Of a DNA stretch of 47,773 nt, positions 544 to 42,927 are shown in pieces. The DNA lies in the IMG/VR virus record IMGVR_UViG_3300037307_000061, positions 1 to 47,773 of that record. One strand, given 5' to 3'. Positions within the stretch are counted from its first letter, which is position 1; every line of letters starts with the position of its first letter. The notes under the pieces are model-generated. The model had not been told where the DNA came from and did no database searches. It saw only the letters and a list, made by a program, of their open reading frames with translations. The DNA comes from a virus. Its lineage: Duplodnaviria; Caudoviricetes. The translations under genes were made by a program, and so were the position numbers.

Positions 544-855
544 GTGGTGAATTCGGTGGCCAGTTATGACCCAAATGTTTATGTTCTAGGTGCAAGACCG
601 GAGTTAAGGTTAGCCCCGGTTGATGAGGATGGTTTATTCTTTGCACCAACAGAAATGAGAATGAGTATTGAACAACCTGATGGAGTGATCGTCACTTATT
701 CTGGTGCCGAGCTAACTCTCGCATCGGGTTATTATTATGTTATGTATAGACCACCAACAATCGGTTGGTACGAGTACGAGGGATGGGTAAAGGATAGCGC
801 GGGCCGTGAAATCGCTCAAACACACGGCTTTGATGTAATCGATAGAGTTGGCTAG
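544..855 (+). CDS. small beta-sandwich (BppU-N/Ig-like) virion protein
   Basis: Pattern 'SIEQPDG...GYYYVMY...IGWYEYEGWV...GFDV' resembles BppU N-terminal-like adaptor domains that follow phage fibre genes (recognition, not a search). Confidence 0.55.
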   Translation: MVNSVASYDPNVYVLGARPELRLAPVDEDGLFFAPTEMRMSIEQPDGVIVTYSGAELTLASGYYYVMYRPPTIGWYEYEGWVKDSAGREIAQTHGFDVIDRVG

Positions 856-856
856 G

Positions 857-886
857 TTGAAACTGAACATACCAATCTGCTATAGT
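857..886 (+). promoter_or_regulatory. sigma70-type promoter for the tRNA island
   Basis: TTGAAA (857-862), 18-nt spacer, extended -10 TG-C-TATAGT (881-886). Predicted +1 near G893, the first base of the downstream hairpin RNA. Confidence 0.7.
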
Positions 887-970: not shown

Positions 971-1054
971 GGCGGCGTGGTGGAATGGTATACACGGTTG
1001 ACTTAAAATCAACTGCCTTCGGGTATGGGAGTTCGAATCTCCCCGCCGCTACCA
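971..1054 (+). tRNA. trnL: tRNA-Leu(TAA), long variable arm
   Basis: GGCGGCG/CGCCGCT acceptor, GTTGA-CT-TAA-AA-TCAAC anticodon arm, GTTCGAATC T-loop, ACCA end. Confidence 0.96.
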
Positions 1055-1087
1055 TTTAAATTTTAAATCAATGACCGAAGGAGGTCA

Positions 1088-1423
1088 ATGATAAATAGTA
1101 GTAATAAAATAAAGGCTGATCTATTAGGTATGCCGTATGGAACGGCTAATAACAAATTAAGAAAAGCCCTACTATTTGATTGCGCAAAGAGACTAAATGA
1201 AGATCGTTGTTTTAGGTGTGGGATAAAAATCGAAACGATTGAAGAATTTTCAATCGAACATAAGAACGCTTGGGCAAGGCAAGATGACCCAATTGATGCT
1301 TTTTTTGATTTAGGCAATCGAGCAGCCTACCTTGTTATGAAACAACATTCTGATAGATATTCCAAGCGCCTTAAAAGTAAGCGGGAAAGATATCACAGAA
1401 ATCGTGGCTCAGTAGCCCAATAG
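1088..1423 (+). CDS. HNH-endonuclease-like protein, probably internally deleted
   Basis: GAGGT RBS; 'CFRCG...FSIEH' (CxxC plus first HNH His) and 'FFDLGN', but no downstream H-x-x-C-N half. Stop codon lies in the D-loop of tRNA-Leu(CAA). Confidence 0.65.
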   Translation: MINSSNKIKADLLGMPYGTANNKLRKALLFDCAKRLNEDRCFRCGIKIETIEEFSIEHKNAWARQDDPIDAFFDLGNRAAYLVMKQHSDRYSKRLKSKRERYHRNRGSVAQ

Positions 1424-1484
1424 GTAAGAGGCATAAGTTTCAAAAACTTAAAAGGTAAGAGTTCGAATCTCTTCTGAGCTACCA
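1406..1484 (+). tRNA. trnL: tRNA-Leu(CAA), short variable region
   Basis: GGCTCAG/CTGAGCT acceptor, TAAGT-TT-CAA-AA-ACTTA, 6-nt variable region, AAGAG-TTCGAAT-CTCTT, ACCA. Confidence 0.92.
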
Positions 1485-1498
1485 AAAAATTAATTCGT

Positions 1499-1575
1499 GG
1501 CTTCGTAGCCCAATAGGTAGAGGCGTATGCCTTAGGAGCATATTAGTAAGAGTTCGAATCTCTTCGAAGCCACCA
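1499..1575 (+). tRNA. trnL: tRNA-Leu(TAG), short variable region
   Basis: GGCTTCG/CGAAGCC acceptor, TATGC-CT-TAG-GA-GCATA, 5-nt variable region, AAGAG-TTCGAAT-CTCTT, ACCA. Confidence 0.93.
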
Positions 1576-1631
1576 TTTTATTGCCCACAAATAATCTAAA
1601 CTGTACGGTAGTATAAAGGGGAACAATTCAC

Positions 1632-1707
1632 GCCCCCGTAGCTTAATGGACTAAAGCCAAGGACTTCTAAGCCTTAGATATAGGTTCGATTCCTATCGGG
1701 GGTGCCA
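1632..1707 (+). tRNA. trnR: tRNA-Arg(TCT)
   Basis: GCCCCCG/CGGGGGT acceptor, AAGGA-CT-TCT-AA-GCCTT, ATAGG-TTCGATT-CCTAT, GCCA. Confidence 0.94.
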
Positions 1708-1725
1708 ATTTTAGGAGGTAGATAT

Positions 1726-1944
1726 ATGCCAATTACAGTTAGAGATAATCAAAAGGTTTGGCCCACTTGTCCAGAGTGTGGTTGTAGATTAAATACTGAT
1801 GCTTTTGCTTTTATGGCTGAGTGGGTTGGGTTAAGTCATTTTGGTACAGATAAGGAAAAAGATGCACGGGGTTGTAAGTGTTCTTTAGTTAATAAATGGT
1901 TTTGGCTCCCAGAAGAATCCTTATCTTATTTAGAAAGGGGGTGA
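1726..1944 (+). CDS. small Cys-rich hypothetical protein
   Basis: AGGAGGT RBS before ATG 1726 (the track start at 1702 is inside tRNA-Arg). CPECGC...H...CKC could bind zinc. Confidence 0.7.
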   Translation: MPITVRDNQKVWPTCPECGCRLNTDAFAFMAEWVGLSHFGTDKEKDARGCKCSLVNKWFWLPEESLSYLERG

Positions 1945-1948
1945 GTAA

Positions 1949-2320
1949 ATGTCAAGACGAGTAACAATATTACCACTACAGGCAAGAACAGCAACTATAG
2001 TATCACCAGTTGTTAAAACTTATGATGCCGTAGGTGCTGTCGTTATTGTTAATGTAACGGCAAAAACAGACTCTCCATCAGTTGTATTTACAGTTGAAGG
2101 AGTAGATGAAACTAGTGGATTAAATACAGCCTACACGCTATTAACATCAGCCGCAGTTACAAGTACAGGGTTAACTAGATTAACTGTTCATCCACAGTTA
2201 ACAGCAGCAGCAAATACTATTGCTAAGGATATTATTCCATCACATATTAGAGTTACAGCAACGCATGGTGATGCGGACTCTATTACTTATGCAGTATCAG
2301 CATATTTGGTAGATGCATGA
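1949..2320 (+). CDS. small all-beta (jelly-roll-like) putative virion decoration/spike-base protein
   Basis: GGGGTG RBS; Thr/Val/Ala-rich beta pattern 'ARTAT...NVTA...PSVVFTVEG.D..SG..Y.LL.SAA...TG...L.V.P.L...AN...D..P...RV...H...TY.V', which I recognise from small phage structural proteins. Confidence 0.55.
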   Translation: MSRRVTILPLQARTATIVSPVVKTYDAVGAVVIVNVTAKTDSPSVVFTVEGVDETSGLNTAYTLLTSAAVTSTGLTRLTVHPQLTAAANTIAKDIIPSHIRVTATHGDADSITYAVSAYLVDA

Positions 2321-3042
2321 AACAAGGTATAGTTGTTTGTACATGGAGCGGGGGTCAGCCTTGGGCTGACCTCTGCCTTGATAGTTTAAAAAGCCTTTAT
2401 GATAAGTATCCTATCTATGTTGTAGTCAACGACATTTTAAATGCCGATCCAAAATGGATCAATTCATTATGGAGTTCTTTTTCAATAATTGGGATCAACA
2501 AAGATGAAAGAGAACCGGGGGGATTAAGACAAGTATTGACTGAAACAAACTTAAATGAATTCTGGTTCCTACAAGATACCGTTGAGATAACTGATACAGA
2601 CTTTATAGAAGAGTCTTTCCAAGAGTACTCTGGTTATAGCGTTTCATATATGAGAACCTTTGCTCAATTTTACTTGGCTAAGTGGCAAAGAAGTGTACTA
2701 GAGTCAATAGATATCTCTATACCTAAAAATAAATTAGAGGCTATCAAGTATGAAAATACCATTTCTAATGCTTATCAAGAAGCTATGTTAGATAAAAGAT
2801 TTGCTGTAGTTGATCCTAAAATGGGCTATGGAAATCTTAGGAGTAATTATATAGACACTCTGTTTGGAGAAGAGCGGTTTGCTGTTGTAGGAAAAAATCT
2901 AATAAAAAGAGTCTCCATAGTAAAAGAAAATTTTAGAAAGGATAACTCGTCTTTAGATAACCCTGAATATCTTTCTGAAGAAGAAGTTAAGCAATGGCGT
3001 AAGGTATGGAGAGTAATGACATATAACAATACCGGGGTGTAG
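2317..3042 (+). CDS. glycosyltransferase-like protein (GT-A fold)
   Basis: N-terminal 'IVVCT...CLDSL...IYVVVN' and 'EFWFLQDT' (DxD-equivalent position) match a GT2-like layout. ATGA overlap with the upstream gene. Confidence 0.6.
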   Translation: MKQGIVVCTWSGGQPWADLCLDSLKSLYDKYPIYVVVNDILNADPKWINSLWSSFSIIGINKDEREPGGLRQVLTETNLNEFWFLQDTVEITDTDFIEESFQEYSGYSVSYMRTFAQFYLAKWQRSVLESIDISIPKNKLEAIKYENTISNAYQEAMLDKRFAVVDPKMGYGNLRSNYIDTLFGEERFAVVGKNLIKRVSIVKENFRKDNSSLDNPEYLSEEEVKQWRKVWRVMTYNNTGV

Positions 3043-3044
3043 CT

Positions 3045-3185
3045 TTGGAGAGATTTTGGAGCAAAGTTGACAAATCTAACAAATGCTGGAATTGGATGGC
3101 ATCCAAAAATCGTGAGCGTGTTTGTACTATCTGCAAAAATGCTGCAAGAAGGAGTATGCATAAATCTCGTCGGGGTATCGCCTAA
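3045..3185 (+). pseudogene. remnant HNH homing endonuclease (N- and C-termini fused, 46 aa)
   Basis: Not in the track. TTG start after GGGGTG; translates MERFWSKVDKSNKCWNWMASKNRERVCTICKNAARRSMHKSRRGIA*. 'RFWSKVDK...CW.W' is the typical N-terminus of phage HNH_3 endonucleases; the HR...H..N...N core is absent. Confidence 0.7.
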
Positions 3186-3248
3186 TTTGGCAGGGCACTT
3201 GGTTTGGGTCCAAGCATAATCAGCGTTCAAATCGCTGTACCCCGACCA
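3171..3248 (+). tRNA. trnP: tRNA-Pro(TGG)
   Basis: CGGGGTA/TACCCCG acceptor, CTTGG-TT-TGG-GT-CCAAG, CAGCG-TTCAAAT-CGCTG, ACCA. Confidence 0.94.
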
Positions 3249-3261
3249 CCCCTTTAGAAAG

Positions 3262-3543
3262 GTGGTGATGAAGTTGGGGCGTAAAAAGAAAGTCCCAATA
3301 CCAAAAGGACAAGCATTTTATCCTTTAGATTATAATTTTGTATTTCATAAATATGATGGAAAGGTTCAATGTTCTTACTGTGGAACATTTGAAGCATATG
3401 ATATAATCACCCGCGATCATGTGTATCCTAAGAGTAAAGGTGGATCAATAACGGTCCCTTGTTGCTATAGTTGCAATGAAGCGAAGAAAGATCAACTTCC
3501 CATAGAGTGGGCTATAAATAAATCAAGCGCCATTGATGTTTAA
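3262..3543 (+). CDS. HNH endonuclease (McrA/HNH_5-like)
   Basis: CSYCG...TRDHVYPKSKGG...VPCCYSCNEAKKD is a complete Zn-binding HNH motif. Stop codon is inside tRNA-Gly. Confidence 0.88.
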   Translation: MVMKLGRKKKVPIPKGQAFYPLDYNFVFHKYDGKVQCSYCGTFEAYDIITRDHVYPKSKGGSITVPCCYSCNEAKKDQLPIEWAINKSSAIDV

Positions 3544-3603
3544 CGGCTAGCATTCCTGCCTTCCAAGCAGATCGTGCGGGTTCGAATCCCGCATGGCGCT
3601 CCA
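3527..3603 (+). tRNA. trnG: tRNA-Gly(TCC)
   Basis: GCGCCAT/ATGGCGC acceptor, CTGC-CT-TCC-AA-GCAG, GCGGG-TTCGAAT-CCCGC, TCCA (U73). Confidence 0.95.
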
Positions 3604-3605
3604 AT

Positions 3606-3679
3606 AGGACTGTGGTGTAATGGGAGCATAGGTGTCTCCAAAGCATTTGGCGAGGGTTCGAATCCTTCCAGTCCTGCCA
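3606..3679 (+). tRNA. trnW: tRNA-Trp(CCA)
   Basis: AGGACTG/CAGTCCT acceptor, GGTGT-CT-CCA-AA-GCATT, GAGGG-TTCGAAT-CCTTC, GCCA. Confidence 0.95.
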
Positions 3680-3693
3680 TTTTAGAGGTTCAT

Positions 3694-3906
3694 ATGAAGT
3701 GTGAAAGTATTTACTGTTTTACAGAGACAGATCATTTATACTCAGTTATATTTATGAAACCTTCTAAACATATCTCTATTAACTTGTGTGAAAGATGCTA
3801 CGCTACCGTTTGTCATACTTTAACACGACTAGTTGGCGAAAGTAAAAAATCTGAGTATAATAATTACATTGCCACGGTAGCTCAGTCTGGTAGAGCGATG
3901 GTCTGA
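3694..3906 (+). CDS. small Cys-containing hypothetical protein
   Basis: GAGGT RBS and ATG 3694 (the track start at 3574 lies within tRNAs). C-x4-C...CERC. The C-terminus reads into tRNA-Phe. Confidence 0.6.
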   Translation: MKCESIYCFTETDHLYSVIFMKPSKHISINLCERCYATVCHTLTRLVGESKKSEYNNYIATVAQSGRAMV

Positions 3907-3947
3907 AGAGCCGTGCGTCGTTGGTTCGAATCCGACCCGTGGCACCA
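3871..3947 (+). tRNA. trnF: tRNA-Phe(GAA)
   Basis: GCCACGG/CCGTGGC acceptor, ATGGT-CT-GAA-GA-GCCGT, GTTGG-TTCGAAT-CCGAC, ACCA. Confidence 0.95.
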
Positions 3948-3963
3948 ATAGGAGGTAAAGGAA

Positions 3964-4260
3964 ATGGTAGCAAAAGGTTGGGACTTTAATTATACAATTA
4001 AAGATTCTTATAAACCAGTAAGTACAAATTCTTCTACTTATTATTGGGACGATAATACTTATACAGTCCCATCATATACTTACTCAACTTATTGGTATCC
4101 AACAACAGTTTATATGTATCAAATATTCTGTCCAAAACTAAGATGCAAGGGAGTATTTTGGGGGCAGATAGATTCAATAGTAGTATGTCCTAAGTGTAAA
4201 TCAAGGGTAAAAGTTACAGACTCTCCTCCACCGGATTATGAAGTGGAAGTGACAAAATAG
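3964..4260 (+). CDS. zinc-ribbon hypothetical protein with Tyr/Thr/Ser-rich N-terminus
   Basis: AGGAGGT RBS; CPKLRC...CPKC. Confidence 0.75.
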   Translation: MVAKGWDFNYTIKDSYKPVSTNSSTYYWDDNTYTVPSYTYSTYWYPTTVYMYQIFCPKLRCKGVFWGQIDSIVVCPKCKSRVKVTDSPPPDYEVEVTK

Positions 4261-4276
4261 AGGGGGTGGAATATGC

Positions 4277-4444
4277 GTGGTAAGAATATGGATGATCTTT
4301 GAAGACAACACATATTATGCCACGCCTCCTATGGAGCGCTATTTGGCAGAGTTACTTCTTGTAAATCTTGGTGTAGACTCATTGTGGGAGATAACACAAA
4401 ACCCGAGTACATTTAAACGAGTACTTAGGGCAAGAATAATTTAG
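4277..4444 (+). CDS. small hypothetical protein (55 aa)
   Basis: Below the track cutoff. GGGGGTG RBS, GTG start, MVRIWMIFEDNTYYATPPMERYLAELLLVNLG...RARII*. Fills the gap to tRNA-Lys, and the G of TAG is the first tRNA base. Confidence 0.55.
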   Translation: MVRIWMIFEDNTYYATPPMERYLAELLLVNLGVDSLWEITQNPSTFKRVLRARII

Positions 4445-4518
4445 GGTGCGTAACTCAATGGTAGAGTAAGAGACTCTTAACCTCTAGGTTGAAGGTTCGA
4501 CTCCTTCCGCACTCACCA
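4444..4518 (+). tRNA. trnK: tRNA-Lys(CTT)
   Basis: GGGTGCG/CGCACTC acceptor, AGAGA-CT-CTT-AA-CCTCT, GAAGG-TTCGACT-CCTTC, ACCA. Confidence 0.94.
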
Positions 4519-4519
4519 A

Positions 4520-4596
4520 GGGCCATTAGCTCAACCCGGCAGAGCAGGGGACTTTTAATCCAACGGTTGTAGGTTCAAATCCTACATGGCTCACCA
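4520..4596 (+). tRNA. trnK: tRNA-Lys(TTT)
   Basis: GGGCCAT/ATGGCTC acceptor, GGA-CT-TTT-AA-TCC, GTAGG-TTCAAAT-CCTAC, ACCA. Confidence 0.93.
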
Positions 4597-4680
4597 GATA
4601 AATAATATTAGGTTTCTACGGGGGACGCCTATCGGGTTGGAGGAAGATGAAATAGGGCCAATCAAACAGGAGTGATATCA

Positions 4681-4767
4681 ATGATGTTCTTAGGCATAAT
4701 TATTCTGCTTTTACTATTTGATGTAGTAGCACTTGAATATGGCGAAGACACTAGATGGACCCACTAG
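4681..4767 (+). CDS. 28-aa single-pass membrane peptide
   Basis: AGGAGTG RBS; MMFLGIIILLLLFDVVALEYGEDTRWTH*. Stop codon overlaps the first base of tRNA-Asp. Confidence 0.6.
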   Translation: MMFLGIIILLLLFDVVALEYGEDTRWTH

Positions 4768-4841
4768 GTTCGTTAGTATATCGGAAAGTATATCTGTCTG
4801 TCGAACAGAAGGGAGGGGTTCAACTCCCCTACGAACCGCCA
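4767..4841 (+). tRNA. trnD: tRNA-Asp(GTC)
   Basis: GGTTCGT/ACGAACC acceptor, TCTGT-CT-GTC-GA-ACAGA, AGGGG-TTCAACT-CCCCT, GCCA. Confidence 0.94.
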
Positions 4842-4857
4842 AATTAATGAGGGATAA

Positions 4858-5418
4858 ATGGATACAACTACATGGCTGTGTGGACCCCCACCAGCAAAGG
4901 GTCAATACCAAAGATACCCTAGTAGATTTATGTACAATCTCAAAAAATATTACCCGGAGTTTATAGACGACAATACGCTTCATATGTTCTCAGGTTCTTC
5001 TGACTTTGGTATTACTACCGATTTTCGTCCTGAAACTGGTGCTAGCATTATTGCTGATTATCGCAAGCTTCCTGTGGGGAATAATGTATTTAACAATGTG
5101 CTGGTTGACCCGCCTTACGCGGACCATTGGCAAGGGCAATGGCATGGGGATTTACCCAAGCCTAAGCATATATTACGCGAAGCAAGCAGGGTTGTTAGAG
5201 TGGGTGGCCTCATCGGCATCCTCCATATTATCATTATCCCCGCCTACAAAGAATTAGGTGTTGAAAGAATAGGATTACACCCTATTCTTACTGGACCAAA
5301 TAATGCCATAAGGGTATTTAATGTTTTTCGGCTCGTAACTCAGCCCGGTTCAGAGTACGATCCTGATAAGATCGAAGCCGTTGGTTCAAATCCAACCGAG
5401 CCGACCATAGACCCGTAG
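4858..5418 (+). CDS. small SAM-dependent amino-methyltransferase (N6-A/N4-C type)
   Basis: Motif I 'LHMFSGSS', catalytic 'LVDPPY' and 'EASRVVRVGG'. The reading frame runs through tRNA-Ile and stops in tRNA-Gln. Confidence 0.82.
   Translation: MDTTTWLCGPPPAKGQYQRYPSRFMYNLKKYYPEFIDDNTLHMFSGSSDFGITTDFRPETGASIIADYRKLPVGNNVFNNVLVDPPYADHWQGQWHGDLPKPKHILREASRVVRVGGLIGILHIIIIPAYKELGVERIGLHPILTGPNNAIRVFNVFRLVTQPGSEYDPDKIEAVGSNPTEPTIDP
5329..5407 (+). tRNA. trnI: tRNA-Ile(GAT)
   Basis: CGGCTCG/CGAGCCG acceptor, CGATC-CT-GAT-AA-GATCG, GTTGG-TTCAAAT-CCAAC, ACCA. Confidence 0.95.
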
Positions 5419-5485
5419 TTTAATTGGGTAAAGCGTCTGACTCTGGATCAGAAGATTCTAGGTTCGAATCCTAGCGGGTCTGCCA
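5409..5485 (+). tRNA. trnQ: tRNA-Gln(CTG)
   Basis: AGACCCG/CGGGTCT acceptor, TCTGA-CT-CTG-GA-TCAGA, CTAGG-TTCGAAT-CCTAG, GCCA. Confidence 0.93.
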
Positions 5486-5502
5486 ATTTGGAAGTGATTA
5501 AA

Positions 5503-6420
5503 ATGGATATACCGAATATAACAACTAGTCTTTTAACAAACTCTGCTTACGGTTATCCAACGCGAGGAAATGCACGCAGAATAAAGCCTATGTTATTAGC
5601 ATGTATTCACATTACATCTAATCAAAATAACCTAGGAGAAAATGCGGCAACCAATGAGCGTAACTACGCTAATAGAAGCGGCTCAGAAGGACCAAGCGCA
5701 CACTACTATCTTAATAGAGATGGAAGTGTGGTAAAAGCAATAGAACCAGTTAAGTATGCTGCATGGAGCAACGGCGATGTTAATGGGCCAAACACAGCAT
5801 TTTTTGGCTATCAAATATTAAAGAATATGTACTTAGATAATGGGTACAATGCTAACGAAGCATTCCTATTAGAGATAGAAAATTGCGGCTATGGATCATC
5901 ATATCCTATCACTAACGCGCAGAAAGATACGATGGCTTACTTGCTAGCAACTTTCAGTATATCACAGGATATTCCAATTAGCCGTGATACCGTATGGGCG
6001 CATAGTGATGTTAACTCTGTTACCCGTCCTAACTGTCCTATAGTAAAAGCCAGTAAAGAAGTGTTTCTTACAGAGGTCATAAATCTAGCCGAATCAGTTA
6101 AAGCAAAATTAATAGCTCAGCCGTTTATTAAACCTTATCAGGCTCAAATAGATATTCTGCAAATACAGGTAAATCAACTACAGGCAGATTTAACAATTGC
6201 CAATCAAAGAATAATAGATTTAGAGGCTCAGATTGTACATCTTCAAGAAGAGTTAGATAGTGTTAACCAGCAGTTGGCTATGTCTATCTTAGAGAAAGAT
6301 AAACTAGAAGAAGATTTAGATGCTGCTAATAGAGAGATAGCAGCATTAAAAGATGTAGTAGATGAATATGATGAGGTTAAAGAATTGTGGGCCAAACTCC
6401 ACTATACTCTAAACAACTAA
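5503..6420 (+). CDS. endolysin: N-acetylmuramoyl-L-alanine amidase (Amidase_2) with C-terminal coiled coil
   Basis: 'CIHIT', 'SAHYY', 'AWSNGD', 'LLEIE' and 'AHSD....TRPNCP' give the H/H/C Zn ligands of Amidase_2. The last ~100 aa are heptad-like. The start could instead be TTG 5488. Confidence 0.88.
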   Translation: MDIPNITTSLLTNSAYGYPTRGNARRIKPMLLACIHITSNQNNLGENAATNERNYANRSGSEGPSAHYYLNRDGSVVKAIEPVKYAAWSNGDVNGPNTAFFGYQILKNMYLDNGYNANEAFLLEIENCGYGSSYPITNAQKDTMAYLLATFSISQDIPISRDTVWAHSDVNSVTRPNCPIVKASKEVFLTEVINLAESVKAKLIAQPFIKPYQAQIDILQIQVNQLQADLTIANQRIIDLEAQIVHLQEELDSVNQQLAMSILEKDKLEEDLDAANREIAALKDVVDEYDEVKELWAKLHYTLNN

Positions 6421-6497
6421 CCGCCCGTAGCTCAATGGATTAGAGCGACTGACTTCGGATCAGTAGGTTGAGGGTTCAAATCCTTTCGGGCGGGCCA
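6421..6497 (+). tRNA. trnR: tRNA-Arg(TCG)
   Basis: CCGCCCG/CGGGCGG acceptor, ACTGA-CT-TCG-GA-TCAGT, GAGGG-TTCAAAT-CCTTT, GCCA. Confidence 0.95.
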
Positions 6498-6499
6498 AT

Positions 6500-6583
6500 G
6501 GACTAGTTGAGCAATTGGCTGGCTCGCCTGACTGTAGATCAGGTCTGAAAGGCGTGTAGGTTCGAATCCTACCTAGTCCACCA
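6500..6583 (+). tRNA. trnY: tRNA-Tyr(GTA)
   Basis: GGACTAG/CTAGTCC acceptor, CCTGA-CT-GTA-GA-TCAGG, long variable arm, GTAGG-TTCGAAT-CCTAC, ACCA. Confidence 0.94.
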
Positions 6584-6584
6584 A

Positions 6585-6657
6585 GGCGGGGAGGCTTGGT
6601 AGCCCAGCCAGTCTCATAAGCTGTGCTAAGAGTGTTCGATTCACTCCCCCGCAACCA
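6585..6657 (+). tRNA. atypical tRNA(CAT): Met, initiator-like or Ile2
   Basis: GGCGGGG/CCCCGCA with a 1-72 mismatch, reduced D-arm GGC-TTGGTA-GCC, CAGT-CT-CAT-AA-GCTG, GAGTG-TTCGATT-CACTC, ACCA. Confidence 0.85.
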
Positions 6658-35017: not shown

Positions 35018-38000
35018 ATGACAACATATTATCTGAGTACAACAGGCAATAATAACAACAACGGAACAAGTACATCAACCCCTTGGGCTACGCTGGAAAA
35101 GTTTTTAACCCTTCCACCACAACCGGGTGATACATTATTAATTCTCGGTGGCACCTATACTGGAACAGGTAATAAAAAGTTATATGTTAGTGGTATTAGT
35201 GGTACGGCTGGAAACCCAATTACTATTAAAAATTATAATGGTGAAACTGTCATATTCGATGGAGGAATAGCTGGAAACGGTGGATCAAAAACTTGGACTT
35301 GGTGGGTTTACTTTTCTAACGGTAATCGTCCAGCCACAGGTGGTAATGGTTGTAGTTATTGGGTTATTGAAGAATTAATTTTTCAACATTTTGAAGCTTC
35401 TGATAATGCTGTTCTTGCATGGGGAAATTGGAATGATAATGATACTGTTAAACATCAATATAATATTATTCGTAAATGTATCTGGCGTGAAAATTATGCG
35501 GCGACAGATGGTACCGGAAATCTAGACAATCCACATGAATTATATCCCGGCGGCGGGTGTCAGTACATCACAGTTGAATATTGCCAGTTCTACGGTGCTG
35601 TCTACGGCCAAGGCAGCCAAACCCCTGCCGCTGGTGCATTCCATATCTATCATTCGCCGGGAGGACCGGGCAATATCGTTCGTTACAATATCTTTGATGG
35701 CTATAACAGAGGATTTTGGGTATTTCAGGCCTCCTATGAGGCCGAAATATATCACAACACATTTCTTGATTGTTATATCAATATGGAAGTATCTAGAATT
35801 GCTACTATAGATAGCGCAGTTGAAATTTATGATAATGCTGGCGAAACAGCCGACTCTGGAACAAATATTTTTGAAGATACTACCTATGGTGATTATACAT
35901 CTTATACAAATATTTACAATAACTTTTGGAACCAAAGTTTTGACTCCAACTACTACCTTGATCCAAGCGACAGCGGTTGGAAAGCTGCAACTGATGGTAC
36001 TGATGCTGGTGCTAGAAATGCTGCCACACAAAAACATGGTCAAGCACGGGCACAAATTGGGACTGGTATTGTTCCTGATAATGCTTACGAGGTTGAAGTT
36101 TTAGCAGATAATCCTGTATTTTTGGCAACACTAGAGGAATCATCAGGAAGTATTTTAGATATTGTTGGATTGCTTACTGGTACTGCTTACGGTTCTCCTA
36201 CATACGGTGTTACTGGACCTATTAGTGGTAAAACAGCAATTGATTTTCCTACTGGAAATGATTATTTCTCAATAACTGATCCCGGCACTAATTCAGTACT
36301 TGATCTAGGAACAGGTAACTTTTCAGTCGAATACTGGTTTGCCCGTGACGAGGACGCTACAGGTGTTGAAGTACATCTATACAAGGGAGCAGGAACCTTT
36401 AACTTTGGTATAACAGACGGTGACAAGTGGATGCTCGGGTATGCGGGTGTTGGGGTATTTGCTTATGGGAGTGTTAATGTTTTATCTAATAGCGTATGGC
36501 ATCATGTAGTATGGACTCGTACATCTGGTGGAACAAATACCCTATATGTGGACGGTGTTTCTGAGTCTACTGCCTATACGCAAAGTTATACCGCAGTAGA
36601 TACAAATAATCCATTTATTATTGGTAGAGAGAATACGAGTGAACGGGCCGCAGGGAAAATAGCCTATGTAGCAATATATAAAAGTGTATTAGACAGTACA
36701 AGAGTTGCGGCTCACTACTCTTCTGCTAGCTCTAGCAAAGTTACTAGAACAGCATCAGCACAAGCACAATCAAAATTAAAGGCTTTTAATATACGCTCTT
36801 ATGCGCAAGCGCAAGCTATTTTACCTTCTATTAGTGGCGCAACTTATAGAGGCTATGCTCAGGCTCAAACTAAAATAGGTAAAGTCTATTATATTGCTCC
36901 ATCAGGAAGTAATAGTACTGGTAATGGGTCTAAATCTACTCCTTGGAGAACAATGGCAGCATTCTTTTCAGTTGCTTCCGCAGGAGATATATTATTTGTA
37001 AGAGAGGGAACCTACACAGGATCAGATATTGGTAATCACTCATGTTATGCGACTGGAACAGCTAATGCACCTATCCTGATTTCTGGATATCCGGGTGATA
37101 GTATCCCAGTATATGATGGAAATTCTTCTGGTGATGTTTATGCTATATGGTTTAGGGATACTGCTGCTTATATCACCGTTCAAGATATTAAGTTTACTAA
37201 CTGGGAGGGTGGAGATTCGGCAGTATTAACCTCGTCAGGAACAAGCCCTAATTTTCCACACCATTTAACATGGCAAAGACTTACTTTACATAAAAAATCA
37301 ATGAGTCCTATATCTGGAACGCATGGTGCTTATTGGGGAAATGGGGTAAATAATTCTGTTGTTCAAGATTGCTTTATTGATGGTAATAGCATGGAGGGTG
37401 CGGGAGTACATGCTTACCATAACCCTAGCCCTCATGATAATATAGCTCAAAGAAATATTATTTTAAACTGGTCTGGTAGTTTAGTAACAGGTGGTTGTGG
37501 CGTTTTACTTTGGATAACTCCTGAAAATGGTGGAACTAATTTTGATATTTTACATAATACATTCATAAATAATCTTACTAATATTAGAGTGGAGTATGCG
37601 GATTCTGTCACTATTCAAGATAATGCAGGAACCAATTCTATATCCGGTCCTAATATTATTTCTGGAACTTATTCACCAACACCAACTAATTTAGTAATAA
37701 ATAATAATTATTGGGATCAAGAATTTAGTAGTACCTATCATCTACTGTACGGGGAAACAGGTAGAAATGCTGCTACAGATGGTAAAGATGCCGGTGCTTT
37801 AAACTATGAAATGGCTTGGGGACAAGCACAAACTGCTATAGCTTATCGTTCATATTATATAAGTCCAACTGGTAGCGATACTACAGGAAATGGTTCATAT
37901 AATTCTCCTTGGGCATCTATTAATAAATTTATTGCCATTCCGCCTTCCCCCGGTTACACTCTTTATTGCCGTGGAGGAACTTATACAGGCATATCTGATA

Positions 38001-41000
38001 TAGTAATAGCCAATATATCTGGTACAGTTTCAGCACCTATTACAATTCGTAATTACCCCGGTGATATACCAATTTTCCAAGGAACTAATACTACTTACAA
38101 TTATGGATTATTGATTCAAGAAGCAACGTCTTATCTTGTTATTGATGGACTTCAATTTACTAATTTTCGGCCTACGTCTGCGGGTGTAATTGAAATATAT
38201 GATGCCAATACAACGGTTGGGCCGCACCATATTACGATTCGCAACTGTAAAATTACACAGGTTAGTGGTTTAACAGTAGCCGAGCATTGTATAGATGTGG
38301 GTAAATATTCGCACGATGTTACAATAGAGGGTTGTGTTTTAATTGGTAATTATGTAACTGGAACAGAGGGTTGTGGTATTAATAATGATCATGCTCCTGT
38401 AAGTTACAATATGCTCTTCCAGCGTAATATATTTTATGATTGTGCTAAAGGTATCTATATTTGGGGAAGCTCTGCAACTGGTTCATTCCTTCATAATTCA
38501 TTTATCAATTGCTATGCTAATATTCGCCTAAATACTAATCATGGAGCAATTCTTGTCCGCGATAATGCTGGAACTGATGCCGCAGCAGGAACAACCTATA
38601 ACTTATATGACCCTGTTCCTACAGGAACAACTGCCGATCATAATTACTGGGATCAAGAATTTGATAGCACTTACCATCTGCTGTATGGAGAAACAGGAAG
38701 AGCCGCAGCAAGTGACGGTAAAGATGCTGGTGCATTAAGCTGGGTAGTTAGGTCTGGTCAAGCTCAAGCACAGATAGGTTTAATTACTCGTAGAAATTAT
38801 GGACAAGCACAAGCATATATAAATGCACGAACCTACTACATTAGCCCAACCGGCTCTGGTACAGTCGGTAGCCTAGCCCAACCATGTGCGCTTTCACGCC
38901 TTGCAACGGCTGGTGTTGTACAACCGGGCGACACATGGATTCTTTTAGATGGAACATATGGGACGCTAAATCTTGATGGCTCATCCGGCGTTCTAGACGG
39001 GACTTCTTCGATGCCTGTTACTGTTCGTGCGCAGAATGAGCGTGGAGCGCATCTTATCGGTCCCGGTAATGTATCAGTCCTTCGGGTCGCTAATCTCTCA
39101 TACTGGACATTTGTAGGACTGCGTATTCAGAACAGCGACCTTGATGCCCAATGGCTAGATAATGTCGATATCTTTGGTTGCGATCATCTAACTTTCCGGC
39201 GTTGTTTATTCCATCACAGTAATCAAGGACTTGAACCGGGCAGCTTAACTGGCTACAACAATGTTGGTCTAGTTCTTGTGCAGGATAGTGATTACTGTAC
39301 TTTTGAGGAAAATGAATTTTGGGACTGTATTAGCAACTTCCTTCAATTCTCCAACTACACTTCAGGTTACGGCAACCATGTTGCTCGTCGTAATTATTTT
39401 AATTATGGTAACGCATATCTGAAGCGGCGTGGAGCCGGTATATCTATCTACCCCTCAAATGGTTGCATCATTGAAAATAATTTCATGGATGAAGTACATG
39501 CCGACATTCAAGGAGCCTATTCCTATGGTCCCTTTGAAGAACAGAATCGCTTCTTCGGTAACATCATGCTTGATGATTATCTTGGGTATGAGCAATGCCG
39601 CGAGGATCGACCTACAGGCAGTATTTGGAGAAACAATGTTGCTATTGCCAACTCTAGCTATGTTGCAATGTTTATTCGTGGTTCTGCCGGAACATTAGTA
39701 GAAAATAACACAGTAATTGGCGGCTATGGTAACTACGCTTTCGATGAACAAGAGGATGCTTGTTTCGGTAGTGGTTCGGCAAGTATTACTTTCTGCAACA
39801 ACCTAGGACTTTACGGTAGTGAGTTTGGCTTTATAGCCAACGATCCTCTTGCACCCGCTTGGACAACTGATCATCAGAATCAATATGGGGCTACAGGTTA
39901 CGGCAATTTCACGCCTAGCGAAAGCGATTCTCGCCACACAAGCCCAATGCAAGTAGCACCAAATGCTGCACAACTTAGGTGTCCTGCATTTATTGTGCCG
40001 TCATCCCCATATTACCAAACAGGAGCATCGGGTGCTAATGTAGGAGCTACAGTACTCTATACCTACGAGAACGGCACGATTACAACTAACCCGATTTGGA
40101 ATACGACTACCAGCGAAATACTCTCAACATACATTGGTGCTGTTGTAACAGGTGTTAATGATGGATCGCAAAACGCTAATAAGCGACTACTTAATTTTGG
40201 AAGTCGGCTTCATCCAAACATCACGGCTGATGATTTTGCTTCTGTCTATACTACTGCCATTCGAAGTTATGCTCAAGCACAAGCAAAATTAAAAGGTTTT
40301 AATGTTCAGGGATACGGTCAAGCACAAGTTAAACTTAGTGGTAGTGGAATAACAGCAGATAATTTATATGAATATGAAGTAATTACAGATAACCCAATAT
40401 TTTTACTCCCAATGGAAGAATCATCTGGTAATTTGACAGATATTATTGGGGGCAAAATAGCAACTGCTAATGGATCACCAACTTATAGTGTTGCTGGTCC
40501 AATACAAGGTAAAACTGCTATACAAATCACAGGTACAGGTACTAATTATTTTTCTGTTGCTCATCATACAGACCTAAATCTTGCTGATGGTCCATTTACT
40601 CTTGAAATGTGGTATTACCGTGATGCTGATCTTGGTTCTGTATATGAGTCAGTTATTGCCAAAGGTGTAAATGGGTATGTTTTTGGCATAACTGCTACGG
40701 GATCGACTCCATACGATGATCGAATTCAGTTAGGTAAGCAGGGAGTTATTGGATTAGCCTATAGTACTACTGATCCTGTTCCTATTGGATCGTGGCTACA
40801 TTGGGTCATAACACGATCTGCTACCAGAGGGGTAGGCTCTACAAAAGTCTATAAGAATGGTGTAGAAGAAACTGGTTATGAGCCTTCGACTACTACTACA
40901 CTTAATAATACCACTAGTCCTTTATTGATTGGCCAAGAATCAGGAACAAACTATGCTAATGGTCGTATCGCATATGTTGCAATATATAAAACTGTTCTCA

Positions 41001-42925
41001 GCAGCACAAGAATTGCTGCTCACTATGCTGCATCTAAAGTAAAAATTAGTACCGCGCAAGCCCGAACAAAAGTTATTGGTCCTACTACATATAAACTATT
41101 TGCGCAATCTCAAGGAAAAATAAAACGAACCTATAAAAATTTGGCGCAAGCTCAAACTCAAATAGCAGGAACAATTCCTAGAGGATATGCACAAGCAAGT
41201 GCTGCCGTAGCAGGAACATTTACATCTGTATCAGACACATTTACTAGAAGTGTAACTGATGGTTTGGGTACTGCTGATACTGGCGGGACTTATACTGTCT
41301 ATGAAACAGCGGCAGATTGGGATATTAATGGATCAAAAGCGGTTGTTGTTACTGCCCATAGTTATACTGTAGGTAGTCTAGCAGTTTTAAAATCTGTTGC
41401 CATGTCAACGGTTGGCGGCTCCATAGAATTTAATCTGAATCAATTACCCGGTCAAGATGAAGTATATTATTTATATATATTAATAGATAGATCACCTACT
41501 AGTGTTACATCTTGGCCCTATTCAATAACCGGCCCTAATATAATGATAGATTCAGATGGTAATATTTATATACAAGCTATTTATAATGGTTCTGGTCTAG
41601 GAACAACAATAGGTACTTATACAGCAGGAGATACATGGTTATTAAAATTTACTTATTTAAAAAATTCTACAGATGCACTATTTAAGATAAAAACTTATAA
41701 GCAAGGAACTACAGAACCCGGTTGGCAACTCGTAAAAACTACCACACAAGCTATTGATCCAAGCTATTACAGACAGTTTGCAGGGCATGTTGGCCTATTA
41801 GCAATGTTTGCTGGGACGGCTGGATCAAGAACACTTACGCTAGATAACTGGAATCTTTATGTGGTAGGAAATGATCAATCTGCCCAAGCGCAAGCACGAA
41901 TAAAGCGAGTCTATCAAAGTTTTGCTCAAGCACAGACACAAATAATAGTAGGAAGTTTTAATAAAGGATTTTCACAAGCAAATGCTGCTATATCAGGAGC
42001 ATTTACATCTGTAGTAGATACATTTACTAGAACTGTGGCAAGTGGTTTAGGTACTGCTGATACAGGTGGAACCTACTACAATTCTACTAATGCTTGGAGT
42101 GTTAATGGTAGCAAGGGTGTTGCAGCTTCTAATTATAATTTGACGCATTTTGCAACATTACCTAGTGTTGCACTTAATAATTTGGAAACTTCCTTAGAGT
42201 ATGCTCATTCCGCTCTTCCAACTAGTGGTACTGGTGGTGTAATTTCGGTAACTTTCCATAATAGTGGTACCTCGGCCCCTTATAATCCATCGGGTAATTT
42301 TTATGACCATTTTGAAATTTCTATATTACTAAGTAGTAATGCAGAATTAACATTAACTATATGGGGAGGATCATATGGATGGAGCTATAATGTAGAAAGT
42401 ACTTATACAGCAGGAGATATCTGGATTTTAAAAACACTTTATTGGCCAACTTCTACAAGATATTTAATTAAAGCCAAAACTTGGAAACAGGGTACAACTG
42501 AACCTGACTGGCAAATTATTAAAACTAATAATGATTACCCAATTTTTAATTATATTAACTTTAAAGGTTATGTTGGATTAGCTACAACTCAAGTAAATGC
42601 TATAGGTTCTGGCTTTACTACAATTGATAACTGGAATGTTTATACAGCATGGGATAGCGCAAAAGCACAGGCGCAAGCACAGATTACAAGAGCTACTAAT
42701 TACAAAAAATATGGTCAAGCACAAACAAAAATTAAACAAGTATATCGTGTATTTGCTCAAGCACGAGTAAATATTAAACAGACTTATAAAATGTTTGGTG
42801 CAGCACAAGTCTCGATAATAAATACATATAAAACAACAGGACAGGCGCAAGTGTCAATATATATTTCGAATCATTTAACATTAGTAGATATTTCTACTAA
42901 TGGTTGGGTAGGGGTGGTGATGTAG
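35018..42925 (+). CDS. giant modular virion protein: 4 right-handed beta-helix (pectate lyase-like) + 2 LamG + 2 'DTFTR' lectin-like domains joined by GQAQAxI repeats
   Basis: Four 'YY(L/I)(S/A)xxG...P(W/C)...PGD...GTY' starts, two 'DN.YE.EV..DNP.F...EESSG...G.IAYVAIYK.VL...R.AAHY' domains and two 'DTFTR.V..GLGTADTGG' domains. Confidence 0.88.
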   Translation: MTTYYLSTTGNNNNNGTSTSTPWATLEKFLTLPPQPGDTLLILGGTYTGTGNKKLYVSGISGTAGNPITIKNYNGETVIFDGGIAGNGGSKTWTWWVYFSNGNRPATGGNGCSYWVIEELIFQHFEASDNAVLAWGNWNDNDTVKHQYNIIRKCIWRENYAATDGTGNLDNPHELYPGGGCQYITVEYCQFYGAVYGQGSQTPAAGAFHIYHSPGGPGNIVRYNIFDGYNRGFWVFQASYEAEIYHNTFLDCYINMEVSRIATIDSAVEIYDNAGETADSGTNIFEDTTYGDYTSYTNIYNNFWNQSFDSNYYLDPSDSGWKAATDGTDAGARNAATQKHGQARAQIGTGIVPDNAYEVEVLADNPVFLATLEESSGSILDIVGLLTGTAYGSPTYGVTGPISGKTAIDFPTGNDYFSITDPGTNSVLDLGTGNFSVEYWFARDEDATGVEVHLYKGAGTFNFGITDGDKWMLGYAGVGVFAYGSVNVLSNSVWHHVVWTRTSGGTNTLYVDGVSESTAYTQSYTAVDTNNPFIIGRENTSERAAGKIAYVAIYKSVLDSTRVAAHYSSASSSKVTRTASAQAQSKLKAFNIRSYAQAQAILPSISGATYRGYAQAQTKIGKVYYIAPSGSNSTGNGSKSTPWRTMAAFFSVASAGDILFVREGTYTGSDIGNHSCYATGTANAPILISGYPGDSIPVYDGNSSGDVYAIWFRDTAAYITVQDIKFTNWEGGDSAVLTSSGTSPNFPHHLTWQRLTLHKKSMSPISGTHGAYWGNGVNNSVVQDCFIDGNSMEGAGVHAYHNPSPHDNIAQRNIILNWSGSLVTGGCGVLLWITPENGGTNFDILHNTFINNLTNIRVEYADSVTIQDNAGTNSISGPNIISGTYSPTPTNLVINNNYWDQEFSSTYHLLYGETGRNAATDGKDAGALNYEMAWGQAQTAIAYRSYYISPTGSDTTGNGSYNSPWASINKFIAIPPSPGYTLYCRGGTYTGISDIVIANISGTVSAPITIRNYPGDIPIFQGTNTTYNYGLLIQEATSYLVIDGLQFTNFRPTSAGVIEIYDANTTVGPHHITIRNCKITQVSGLTVAEHCIDVGKYSHDVTIEGCVLIGNYVTGTEGCGINNDHAPVSYNMLFQRNIFYDCAKGIYIWGSSATGSFLHNSFINCYANIRLNTNHGAILVRDNAGTDAAAGTTYNLYDPVPTGTTADHNYWDQEFDSTYHLLYGETGRAAASDGKDAGALSWVVRSGQAQAQIGLITRRNYGQAQAYINARTYYISPTGSGTVGSLAQPCALSRLATAGVVQPGDTWILLDGTYGTLNLDGSSGVLDGTSSMPVTVRAQNERGAHLIGPGNVSVLRVANLSYWTFVGLRIQNSDLDAQWLDNVDIFGCDHLTFRRCLFHHSNQGLEPGSLTGYNNVGLVLVQDSDYCTFEENEFWDCISNFLQFSNYTSGYGNHVARRNYFNYGNAYLKRRGAGISIYPSNGCIIENNFMDEVHADIQGAYSYGPFEEQNRFFGNIMLDDYLGYEQCREDRPTGSIWRNNVAIANSSYVAMFIRGSAGTLVENNTVIGGYGNYAFDEQEDACFGSGSASITFCNNLGLYGSEFGFIANDPLAPAWTTDHQNQYGATGYGNFTPSESDSRHTSPMQVAPNAAQLRCPAFIVPSSPYYQTGASGANVGATVLYTYENGTITTNPIWNTTTSEILSTYIGAVVTGVNDGSQNANKRLLNFGSRLHPNITADDFASVYTTAIRSYAQAQAKLKGFNVQGYGQAQVKLSGSGITADNLYEYEVITDNPIFLLPMEESSGNLTDIIGGKIATANGSPTYSVAGPIQGKTAIQITGTGTNYFSVAHHTDLNLADGPFTLEMWYYRDADLGSVYESVIAKGVNGYVFGITATGSTPYDDRIQLGKQGVIGLAYSTTDPVPIGSWLHWVITRSATRGVGSTKVYKNGVEETGYEPSTTTTLNNTTSPLLIGQESGTNYANGRIAYVAIYKTVLSSTRIAAHYAASKVKISTAQARTKVIGPTTYKLFAQSQGKIKRTYKNLAQAQTQIAGTIPRGYAQASAAVAGTFTSVSDTFTRSVTDGLGTADTGGTYTVYETAADWDINGSKAVVVTAHSYTVGSLAVLKSVAMSTVGGSIEFNLNQLPGQDEVYYLYILIDRSPTSVTSWPYSITGPNIMIDSDGNIYIQAIYNGSGLGTTIGTYTAGDTWLLKFTYLKNSTDALFKIKTYKQGTTEPGWQLVKTTTQAIDPSYYRQFAGHVGLLAMFAGTAGSRTLTLDNWNLYVVGNDQSAQAQARIKRVYQSFAQAQTQIIVGSFNKGFSQANAAISGAFTSVVDTFTRTVASGLGTADTGGTYYNSTNAWSVNGSKGVAASNYNLTHFATLPSVALNNLETSLEYAHSALPTSGTGGVISVTFHNSGTSAPYNPSGNFYDHFEISILLSSNAELTLTIWGGSYGWSYNVESTYTAGDIWILKTLYWPTSTRYLIKAKTWKQGTTEPDWQIIKTNNDYPIFNYINFKGYVGLATTQVNAIGSGFTTIDNWNVYTAWDSAKAQAQAQITRATNYKKYGQAQTKIKQVYRVFAQARVNIKQTYKMFGAAQVSIINTYKTTGQAQVSIYISNHLTLVDISTNGWVGVVM

Positions 42926-42927
42926 TA

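Follow-up and report, generated by a model that had tools for sequence, protein, structure and literature searches.

Genes that end inside the next tRNA of a phage tRNA array are probably a tolerated by-product of tight packing

Introduction

Why should the genes interspersed in a phage array of transfer RNA (tRNA) genes run into the tRNA that follows them, where cleavage by ribonuclease P (RNase P) at its first base (+1) would take the stop codon away? The question is raised by IMGVR_UViG_3300037307_000061, a 47.8-kb virus record of the Caudoviricetes (47,773 nucleotides (nt), here called the window), in which 16 tRNA genes and 11 interspersed open reading frames (ORFs) occupy positions 971-6657, with all tRNAs on the + strand. 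An earlier note on this DNA held that each ORF directly upstream of a tRNA ends inside, on or flush with it, and proposed that tRNA maturation competes with protein output as an off-switch, a timer or a sensor. Our results show that the layout is real and family-wide, and that its kind is already known from phage T5. The overlaps change readily between related phages and keep leaders of the RNase P type (A at -2, few G). In our view they probably arise from tight packing on one tRNA-punctuated transcript with a single promoter, where they are tolerated; a dedicated off-switch is improbable.

Results

ORF-tRNA junctions of the window

The tRNAs were placed with ARAGORN and Rfam, which agreed with the positions given in the earlier note. 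All eight ORFs singled out there indeed stop within ~20 nt of the next tRNA or inside it: seven overlap it, by 1 to 90 bases, and the eighth, an amidase gene, lies flush against its tRNA (Table 1). The word "every" stood within the range that the note covered, but not beyond it, as the conserved ORF at 544-855 ends well ahead of the first tRNA; nine members of its family that directly precede this tRNA stop 38-389 nt upstream, with no overlap (0/9). In the seven overlapping cases +1 coincides with a codon boundary four times, leaves the TA of a TAG twice and leaves a single base once. From this geometry and from established knowledge of RNase P, a cut at +1 would leave the seven messenger RNAs (mRNAs) without a complete stop codon, as had been noted before.

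Related phages hold homologues of seven of the eight ORFs, the exception being 3045-3185. Shine-Dalgarno-like matches of 3-7 nt stand ahead of all eight, and four have Pfam or PHROG hits with E no higher than 2e-8. With L009, its closest relative, the window shares four overlapping junctions by common inheritance.

Junctions across the phage family

We gathered relatives via the terminase (the complete ones measure 115-120 kb) and called genes between their tRNAs with our own codon and ribosome-site scorer, which scored just the portion upstream of +1. The 62 loci gave 740 tRNA calls and 403 sequence-unique junctions, 180 of which were internal with an ORF upstream. One 863-nt overlap, likely a mis-call, and 30 junctions with a gap above 20 nt, some of them hiding small ORFs, were left out of the counts. 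The other 149 of the 180 were close (a gap of at most 20 nt, or an overlap): 59 overlap the tRNA, 10 are flush with it and the remaining 80 have their own stop, placed 1-20 nt ahead of it. The survey of stop-to-+1 distances that the earlier note had called for thus found overlap throughout the family, although 90 of the 149 junctions retain the stop. Since related phages are not independent, all P values given here are optimistic.

On a finer scale, gaps of 0-6 nt account for 69 of the 149 junctions and gaps of 7-20 nt for 21, while 12 share one or two bases and 47 overlap more deeply; stops peak at positions -5, -1, 0, +2 and +10 relative to the tRNA. All 13 junctions at -1 read TAA followed by T, so that the A(-2) of A(-2)U(-1), the leader best suited to RNase P (PMC10731613), comes from the stop itself. 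The same leader bias persists beneath the last codons of overlapped ORFs, both in the scarcity of G (0.11 vs 0.22, P = 8e-8) and in the A at -2 (29 of 47, P = 8e-5), which suggests continued processing of these tRNAs. Overlaps are spread evenly over the three frames (22/19/18), and those deeper than 30 nt are fewer than frame-random read-through would give (10 of 47 against 18 expected, P = 0.005). The median tRNA-tRNA spacer is 2 nt (at most 20 nt in 135 of 182), the median distance from a tRNA end to the next start codon is 20 nt, and 29 of 81 ORF-ORF pairs overlap each other.

Overlap was rarer in widespread non-HNH genes than in the rest (5/29 vs 54/120, P = 0.006) and commoner in HNH genes than in other genes (14/22 vs 45/127, P = 0.018), and in 45 of the 59 overlaps the gene was not assigned to the nucleases. 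Two widespread families with members in the window overlap at 0/10 (family of 1949-2320) and 1/8 (family of 1726-1944) of their close junctions. This avoidance by widespread genes means that overlap probably costs expression; to that extent the cost to protein output proposed in the earlier note gains support, whereas a designed switch, timer or sensor does not.

Two further ideas were rejected. Old stops shifted out of frame upstream of +1 were no more frequent there (0.112 per position at -12..-1) than farther away (0.119 at -60..-25, P = 0.79). Neither a preferred frame nor a fixed stop at U8-A9-G10 emerged, as frame use is even and position +10 holds just 14 of the 59 overlaps.

Genes at the junctions

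The overlap state flips between orthologues. The HNH-like gene between tRNA-Pro and tRNA-Gly has 16 non-redundant family members, is fixed in this slot and not sporadic, and overlaps in 9 of the 15 rows of its tree; four changes of state are needed, at least three of them forced by well-supported branches, and the state is not clustered on the tree (144 of 500 shuffles were as low). It retains D-H and CxxCN, with a 4-residue gap relative to PDB 4H9D that shortens the catalytic loop. Its behaviour is that of a core gene close to the terminase, and it may serve as a packaging cofactor with a role like that of gp74.

The family of 1088-1423, in contrast, is sporadic and found beside different tRNAs, as free-standing homing endonucleases are. 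Among its 34 loci, 30 have a tRNA within the 3-kb locus and 18 adjoin one; 11 of these 18 overlap and 7 retain the stop. The window copy, whose final five codons and stop lie within tRNA-Leu(CAA), lacks the S-H-x-x-C-N segment, which all 4 aligned homologues and 32 of 34 others possess. The short ORF 3045-3185 starts with TTG and matches phage HNH genes over residues 2-23 (68%, E 1e-3). It has no homologue in the family and is absent from L009, so that its presence is sporadic as well. Similar short unnamed clusters exist, and a search of a large protein set found no full-length relatives, which is weak evidence. As two of the three HNH-type ORFs of the window (1088-1423 and 3045-3185) lack the catalytic core, there would be little to switch off, and the switch for nucleases proposed earlier fits them poorly.

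The predicted DNA methyltransferase gives the longest read-through. Its conserved core closes with codon 157, precisely where tRNA-Ile begins (+1), and from there the frame continues through this tRNA into tRNA-Gln. Homologues end a median of 4 residues past codon 157 (115 of 120 were measurable), a tRNA-derived tail occurs in 1 of the 115, and a copy of 83% identity, which lies away from any tRNA in a phage of the family, keeps a stop of its own. The window gene has lost those few terminal codons and gained a tail derived from the tRNA. A switch for the methyltransferase, also put forward in the earlier note, is not borne out by homologues that end so close to the fusion point.

Of the smaller ORFs, the conserved 55-aa one has six family members, and those adjacent to a tRNA overlap it in 4/4 cases (by 1, 1, 1 and 26 nt). 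The hydrophobic 28-aa ORF has three homologues, none adjoining a tRNA. Homologues of the four-cysteine ORF share 36-53% identity with the window copy; a single-query search found no further ones, and the alignment was too variable to search with. The flush amidase-Arg junction recurs in the related locus L022. The cut that would remove the stop is therefore not conserved in the Pro-Gly HNH gene, in the family of 1088-1423 or in the methyltransferase, and is conserved at Phe (7/7) and at Lys (4/4 adjacent).

The tRNA-Pro locus

A relic tRNA-Pro 5' end lies 138 nt ahead of the present tRNA-Pro. Its twelve nucleotides are those with which the tRNA-Pro usual in the family begins, and they occur once in the window; when the interval was simulated 5000 times with a Markov model, 8 simulations contained any family Pro 5' 12-mer. 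The ORF at 2317-3042 ends within this relic and is likely, from its position, a ninth case of overlap. The tRNA-Pro that follows is of a foreign type, 59% identical to that of L009, against 88-100% identity for seven other tRNAs shared with that phage. Similarity between the window and L009 resumes at 3225, in the T-arm of tRNA-Pro, and the match of L022 to the amidase-Arg block starts at 5461, within the T-arm of tRNA-Gln; both breakpoints are approximate, since local alignments run into T-arms through tRNA similarity alone. The segment 3033-3248 probably records the entry of a cassette of nuclease and tRNA, followed by a deletion. Modules of a gene and its tRNA seem to pass from phage to phage through recombination within tRNA genes, and the junction would then travel as a unit. 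Relics of tRNA 5' ends are not widespread: 2 fragments were found in 103,479 positions, with ~2 expected by chance.

Discussion

Overlap as a probable consequence of packing

The reading that we favour, with fair but far from complete confidence, is that overlaps are tolerated because genes and tRNAs are packed tightly on one transcript. Genome compaction, which the earlier note had listed as a simpler alternative, is the best fit to the family data. A single transcript would start at the promoter-like site at 857, and the cargo would be translated before or during tRNA processing, mainly from the unprocessed transcript. Genes without a stop of their own would run on to the first in-frame stop within the tRNA. 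Cleavage at each +1 would then leave an unprotected mRNA end, 0-6 nt past the stop in most non-overlapping cases, and a stop-less end to be rescued by host transfer-messenger RNA (tmRNA) in the overlapping ones. Lost stops would be tolerated because tRNA processing would destroy these pieces of mRNA anyway. In Escherichia coli, the secG mRNA survives for less than 30 s once RNase P has cut, although its stop and 14 nt are still in place (PMC2241853). The loss would cost dispensable genes little; if overlap lowers protein yield somewhat, it would be purged from widespread genes while HNH and accessory genes retained it. Any rescue would have to come from the host, since we found no tmRNA in the window, and in the five family genomes searched (5/5) neither a tmRNA above the cut-off nor an RF-1/ArfB domain.

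Several observations weigh against this explanation. All 7 homologues of the four-cysteine ORF run into tRNA-Phe, and they do so in two frames. The methyltransferases of the window and of L009 read to the same TAG in tRNA-Gln despite a spacer 30 nt longer, and a further protein, P0001, carries a matching tail. The window itself, with 7 of 8 junctions overlapping, exceeds the 0.356 of the other 135 close junctions (P = 0.004), although heterogeneity across 15 phages was not significant (chi-square P = 0.10). The enrichment of overlap in HNH genes is also predicted by selected attenuation. Finally, our simple caller missed at least two overlapping ORFs (3045 in the window and L005:4656), and junctions were de-duplicated by exact sequence alone, which leaves related phages in the counts.

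Alternative explanations

The strongest rival, which we nevertheless regard as unlikely, is that a stop inside the tRNA has been favoured by selection: RNase P would create a non-stop mRNA, tmRNA would tag its product, and the nucleases, the methyltransferase and the four-cysteine protein would be kept at a low dose tied to tRNA processing. Put more generally, and no more probably, the position of the stop relative to the RNase P site would act as a dose dial, with full output from genes that keep their own stop. A stop at +1 or inside the tRNA would, on the same slender odds, set the ribosome in a race with RNase P, the losers being cleared by tmRNA. Besides the HNH enrichment and the constant Phe junction, precedent argues for attenuation, as it has been proposed for T4 SegB, whose activity is undetectable in infected extracts, and for the F-Tfl enzymes of T5 (PMC2330249), and as arfA is a real control circuit built on a non-stop mRNA (PMC8012679). 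It is set against orthologues that flip their state, the 7 of 18 adjacent members of the family of 1088-1423 that retain the stop, the predominance of genes other than nucleases among the overlaps, two window nucleases without a core, and the shortage of long read-through. The amidase, the most obviously host-damaging product, also keeps its stop. An off-switch, timer or sensor, as first imagined, is not supported by these data or by the stop retained at most junctions.

More doubtful still is that overlap is an insertion scar, a property of the cassettes, each a gene joined to the 5' edge of a tRNA, in which homing nucleases and other cargo would arrive and move. The Pro locus, with its relic of the usual tRNA-Pro, its HNH-related ORF and its foreign tRNA, the amidase-Arg block shared with L022, the frequent tRNAs around homologues of 1088-1423 and the T-arm motif recognised by SegB (PMC2330249) are all consistent with such insertion. 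They account for how junctions travel, but not for how stops are lost: slot genes inherited vertically (the Pro-Gly HNH gene and the four-cysteine ORF) overlap too, the junctions have no fixed position or frame, the alignment breakpoints are approximate and tRNA 5' fragments are no commoner than chance. That the small ORFs are not genes at all, their frames merely opening into stop-rich tRNA 5' ends, is very improbable given the homologues, ribosome-site matches and protein families described above, even though 3045-3185 lacks a family homologue and has a TTG start and all these ORFs are known here from sequence alone.

Relation to known systems

Phage T5 (AY543070) likewise has ORFs interleaved with tRNAs on one strand, among them the HNH genes hegC (F-TflI) and hegD (F-TflII). 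In its annotation, 12 coding sequences (CDSs) directly precede a tRNA: four overlap it (hegD by 23 nt, hegC by 14, T5.069 by 24 and T5.057 by 6), one is flush, six leave gaps of 4-20 nt and one is far, so that 11 of 12 are close or overlapping. T5 differs in having several internal promoters, where the window array has one strong candidate, and in its longer spacers; one ORF of the window also reads through a whole tRNA. With our own caller, overlaps numbered 3/13 in T5, 0/8 in Faust, 0/13 in CM1, 0/6 in Amme-3 and 0/1 in T4; phi1_175008 gave 2/4, unmatched by its annotation, and Hendrix had no ORFs. Four arrays outside the family thus show no overlaps, and the layout is not universal. Lak-A1 (0/4) was set aside because Lak phages use another genetic code.

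In T4, the endonuclease gene segB also lies within a tRNA precursor transcript (PMC2330249, PMC13096335), and its stop falls 5 nt before tRNA-Arg, upstream of +1. Expression limited by tRNA maturation, through damage to the mRNA at the stop codon, was proposed for SegB in 2008, in a text that cites the same idea for T5 (PMC2330249). SegB is a GIY-YIG enzyme, demonstrably active and homing, whereas most of the affected genes in the window are not nucleases and are known from their sequence. Overlaps of CDSs with tRNA or tmRNA genes in bacteria, Carsonella smpB-ssrA included, carry the same predicted removal of the stop by RNA maturation; the figures given there, 250 upstream-CDS overlaps per 115,660 such genes (PMC4131195), make them rare, as against about 4 in 10 close junctions in this phage family. 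In E. coli secG-leuU, RNase P likewise cuts an mRNA away from the tRNA that follows it, and rapid decay of the mRNA ensues, but secG keeps its stop and 14 nt (PMC2241853). The non-stop mRNA of arfA is made deliberately, via RNase III or termination, in a defined feedback role (PMC8012679), and nothing in the phage array indicates a role like the one set out there. PeSL shuffling in T4-like phages uses short conserved repeats as exchange points between unrelated cargo (PMC4122927); PeSL elements are promoter-terminator motifs, while here the exchange points would be tRNA genes, as a few pairwise alignments suggest.

In open-licence PMC and bioRxiv texts we found neither a comparable survey of CDS-tRNA overlap nor a test of the 2008 proposal for SegB and T5. 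What is new here are the family-level numbers, the extension to cargo other than nucleases and the natural allele pairs, such as those of the Pro-Gly HNH gene in L011 and L033 and of the methyltransferase in the window and L029. If overlap is indeed a by-product of packing, annotators should expect genuine CDS-tRNA overlaps in compact phage tRNA arrays and should not take them for switches by default; the baseline would be ~40% overlap, avoided by widespread genes and enriched in HNH genes, with leaders preserved beneath the last codons. Were attenuation true instead, phages would have a general way, readable from sequence, to tie cargo dose to host tRNA processing, and if the stop acts as a dose dial, genes that occur in either state within the family would serve as natural allele pairs and make the SegB/T5 proposal directly testable.

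Other features of the array and the window

The coordinates of the array are collected in Table 1. The 16th tRNA, tRNA-Met(CAT), was missed at default settings and surfaced only at a relaxed threshold; it has a 1:72 mismatch, and its copy in L009 is 100% identical. Terminase and portal genes follow the array, and the long ORFs past them look structural or fibre-like. The promoter-like site likely drives the whole array: a similar motif, judged by eye, precedes the first tRNA in 8 of 10 relatives viewed, and no terminator-like site was found on the + strand after any array tRNA, while the overall count of promoter-like sites in the window was not above that in shuffles. The terminase, searched against 50,697 phage records, gave one weak match, with no close isolated phage and no T5 homology found. 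A terminase-matching contig in a metagenome-assembled genome labelled Flavobacteriaceae, which may be mis-binned, does not establish a host.

Table 1. Features of the tRNA array and its upstream flank; overlap is the number of ORF bases inside the next tRNA, stop included
Feature	Coordinates	Strand	Overlap	Remarks
Conserved ORF upstream of promoter-like site	544..855	+		Stops 115 nt short of tRNA-Leu(TAA)
Sigma-70-type promoter-like site	857..886	+		TG ahead of -10 hexamer; 10/12 matches
tRNA-Leu(TAA)	971..1054	+		First tRNA of the array; ARAGORN, Rfam
HNH-family ORF	1088..1423	+	18	PHROG 23251, E 3e-15; second half of catalytic motif missing
tRNA-Leu(CAA)	1406..1484	+		Short variable arm; ARAGORN, Rfam
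tRNA-Leu(TAG)	1499..1575	+		ARAGORN, Rfam
tRNA-Arg(TCT)	1632..1707	+		ARAGORN, Rfam
Widespread family ORF	1726..1944	+		Orthologues preceding tRNAs nearly always retain own stop
Widespread family ORF	1949..2320	+		Orthologues preceding tRNAs nearly always retain own stop
241-aa ORF	2317..3042	+		TAG is positions 8-10 of relic tRNA-Pro 5' end
Relic tRNA-Pro 5' end	3033..3044	+		12 nt
Short HNH-related ORF	3045..3185	+	15	PHROG 3593, E 1e-5; no catalytic core; ends in tRNA-Pro
tRNA-Pro(TGG)	3171..3248	+		Foreign type
Conserved HNH-like ORF, Pro-Gly slot	3268..3543	+	17	Pfam HNH_5, E 1.6e-8; ends in tRNA-Gly
tRNA-Gly(TCC)	3527..3603	+		ARAGORN, Rfam
tRNA-Trp	3606..3679	+		ARAGORN, Rfam
Small four-cysteine ORF	3694..3906	+	36	Stop TGA in tRNA-Phe anticodon loop
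tRNA-Phe(GAA)	3871..3947	+		ARAGORN, Rfam
Conserved 55-aa ORF	4277..4444	+	1	G of TAG is tRNA-Lys(CTT) +1
tRNA-Lys(CTT)	4444..4518	+		ARAGORN, Rfam
tRNA-Lys(TTT)	4520..4596	+		ARAGORN, Rfam
Hydrophobic 28-aa ORF	4681..4767	+	1	G of TAG is tRNA-Asp +1
tRNA-Asp(GTC)	4767..4841	+		ARAGORN, Rfam
Predicted DNA methyltransferase	4858..5418	+	90	PHROG 3816, E 6e-13; overlap counted from Ile on; stop is U8-A9-G10 of Gln
tRNA-Ile(GAT)	5329..5407	+		ARAGORN, Rfam
tRNA-Gln(CTG)	5409..5485	+		ARAGORN, Rfam
Amidase (endolysin-like), coiled-coil tail	5503..6420	+	0	Pfam Amidase_2, E 7e-14; own TAA, flush with tRNA-Arg(TCG)
tRNA-Arg(TCG)	6421..6497	+		
tRNA-Tyr	6500..6583	+		
tRNA-Met(CAT)	6585..6657	+		Terminase genes next, from 6681

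The leader between the promoter-like site and the first tRNA (887-970) varies among relatives; one version, with an apparent hairpin, is common to L009 and L022. Bacterial tRNA-Leu normally has a long variable arm; the window's tRNA-Leu(CAA) (79 nt) and tRNA-Leu(TAG) (77 nt), which closely resemble one another, have short ones, as do most Leu(CAA) copies of the family. A tRNA with an amber (CUA) anticodon, labelled Pyl by ARAGORN, occurs in four related loci (L005:3548, L006:5769, L015:8009 and L020:5713) and is absent from the window.

A conserved non-coding element at 4627-4663, 30-50 nt past tRNA-Lys, could fold as an H-type pseudoknot and has counterparts in L009 (~7715), L022 (~6409) and L034 (~6002). 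Across the four sequences all 44 cells pair, and both sides have changed in 3 of the 11 pairs (13 of 500 shuffles were as high); an Rfam search with the element gave no match, and 14 viral matches to the motif outside the family, with no tRNA nearby, look like chance. A stem upstream could compete with the first helix of the element. Finally, very large fibre-like proteins with Gln/Ala-rich repeats are encoded at 35018-47773 and 1-541.

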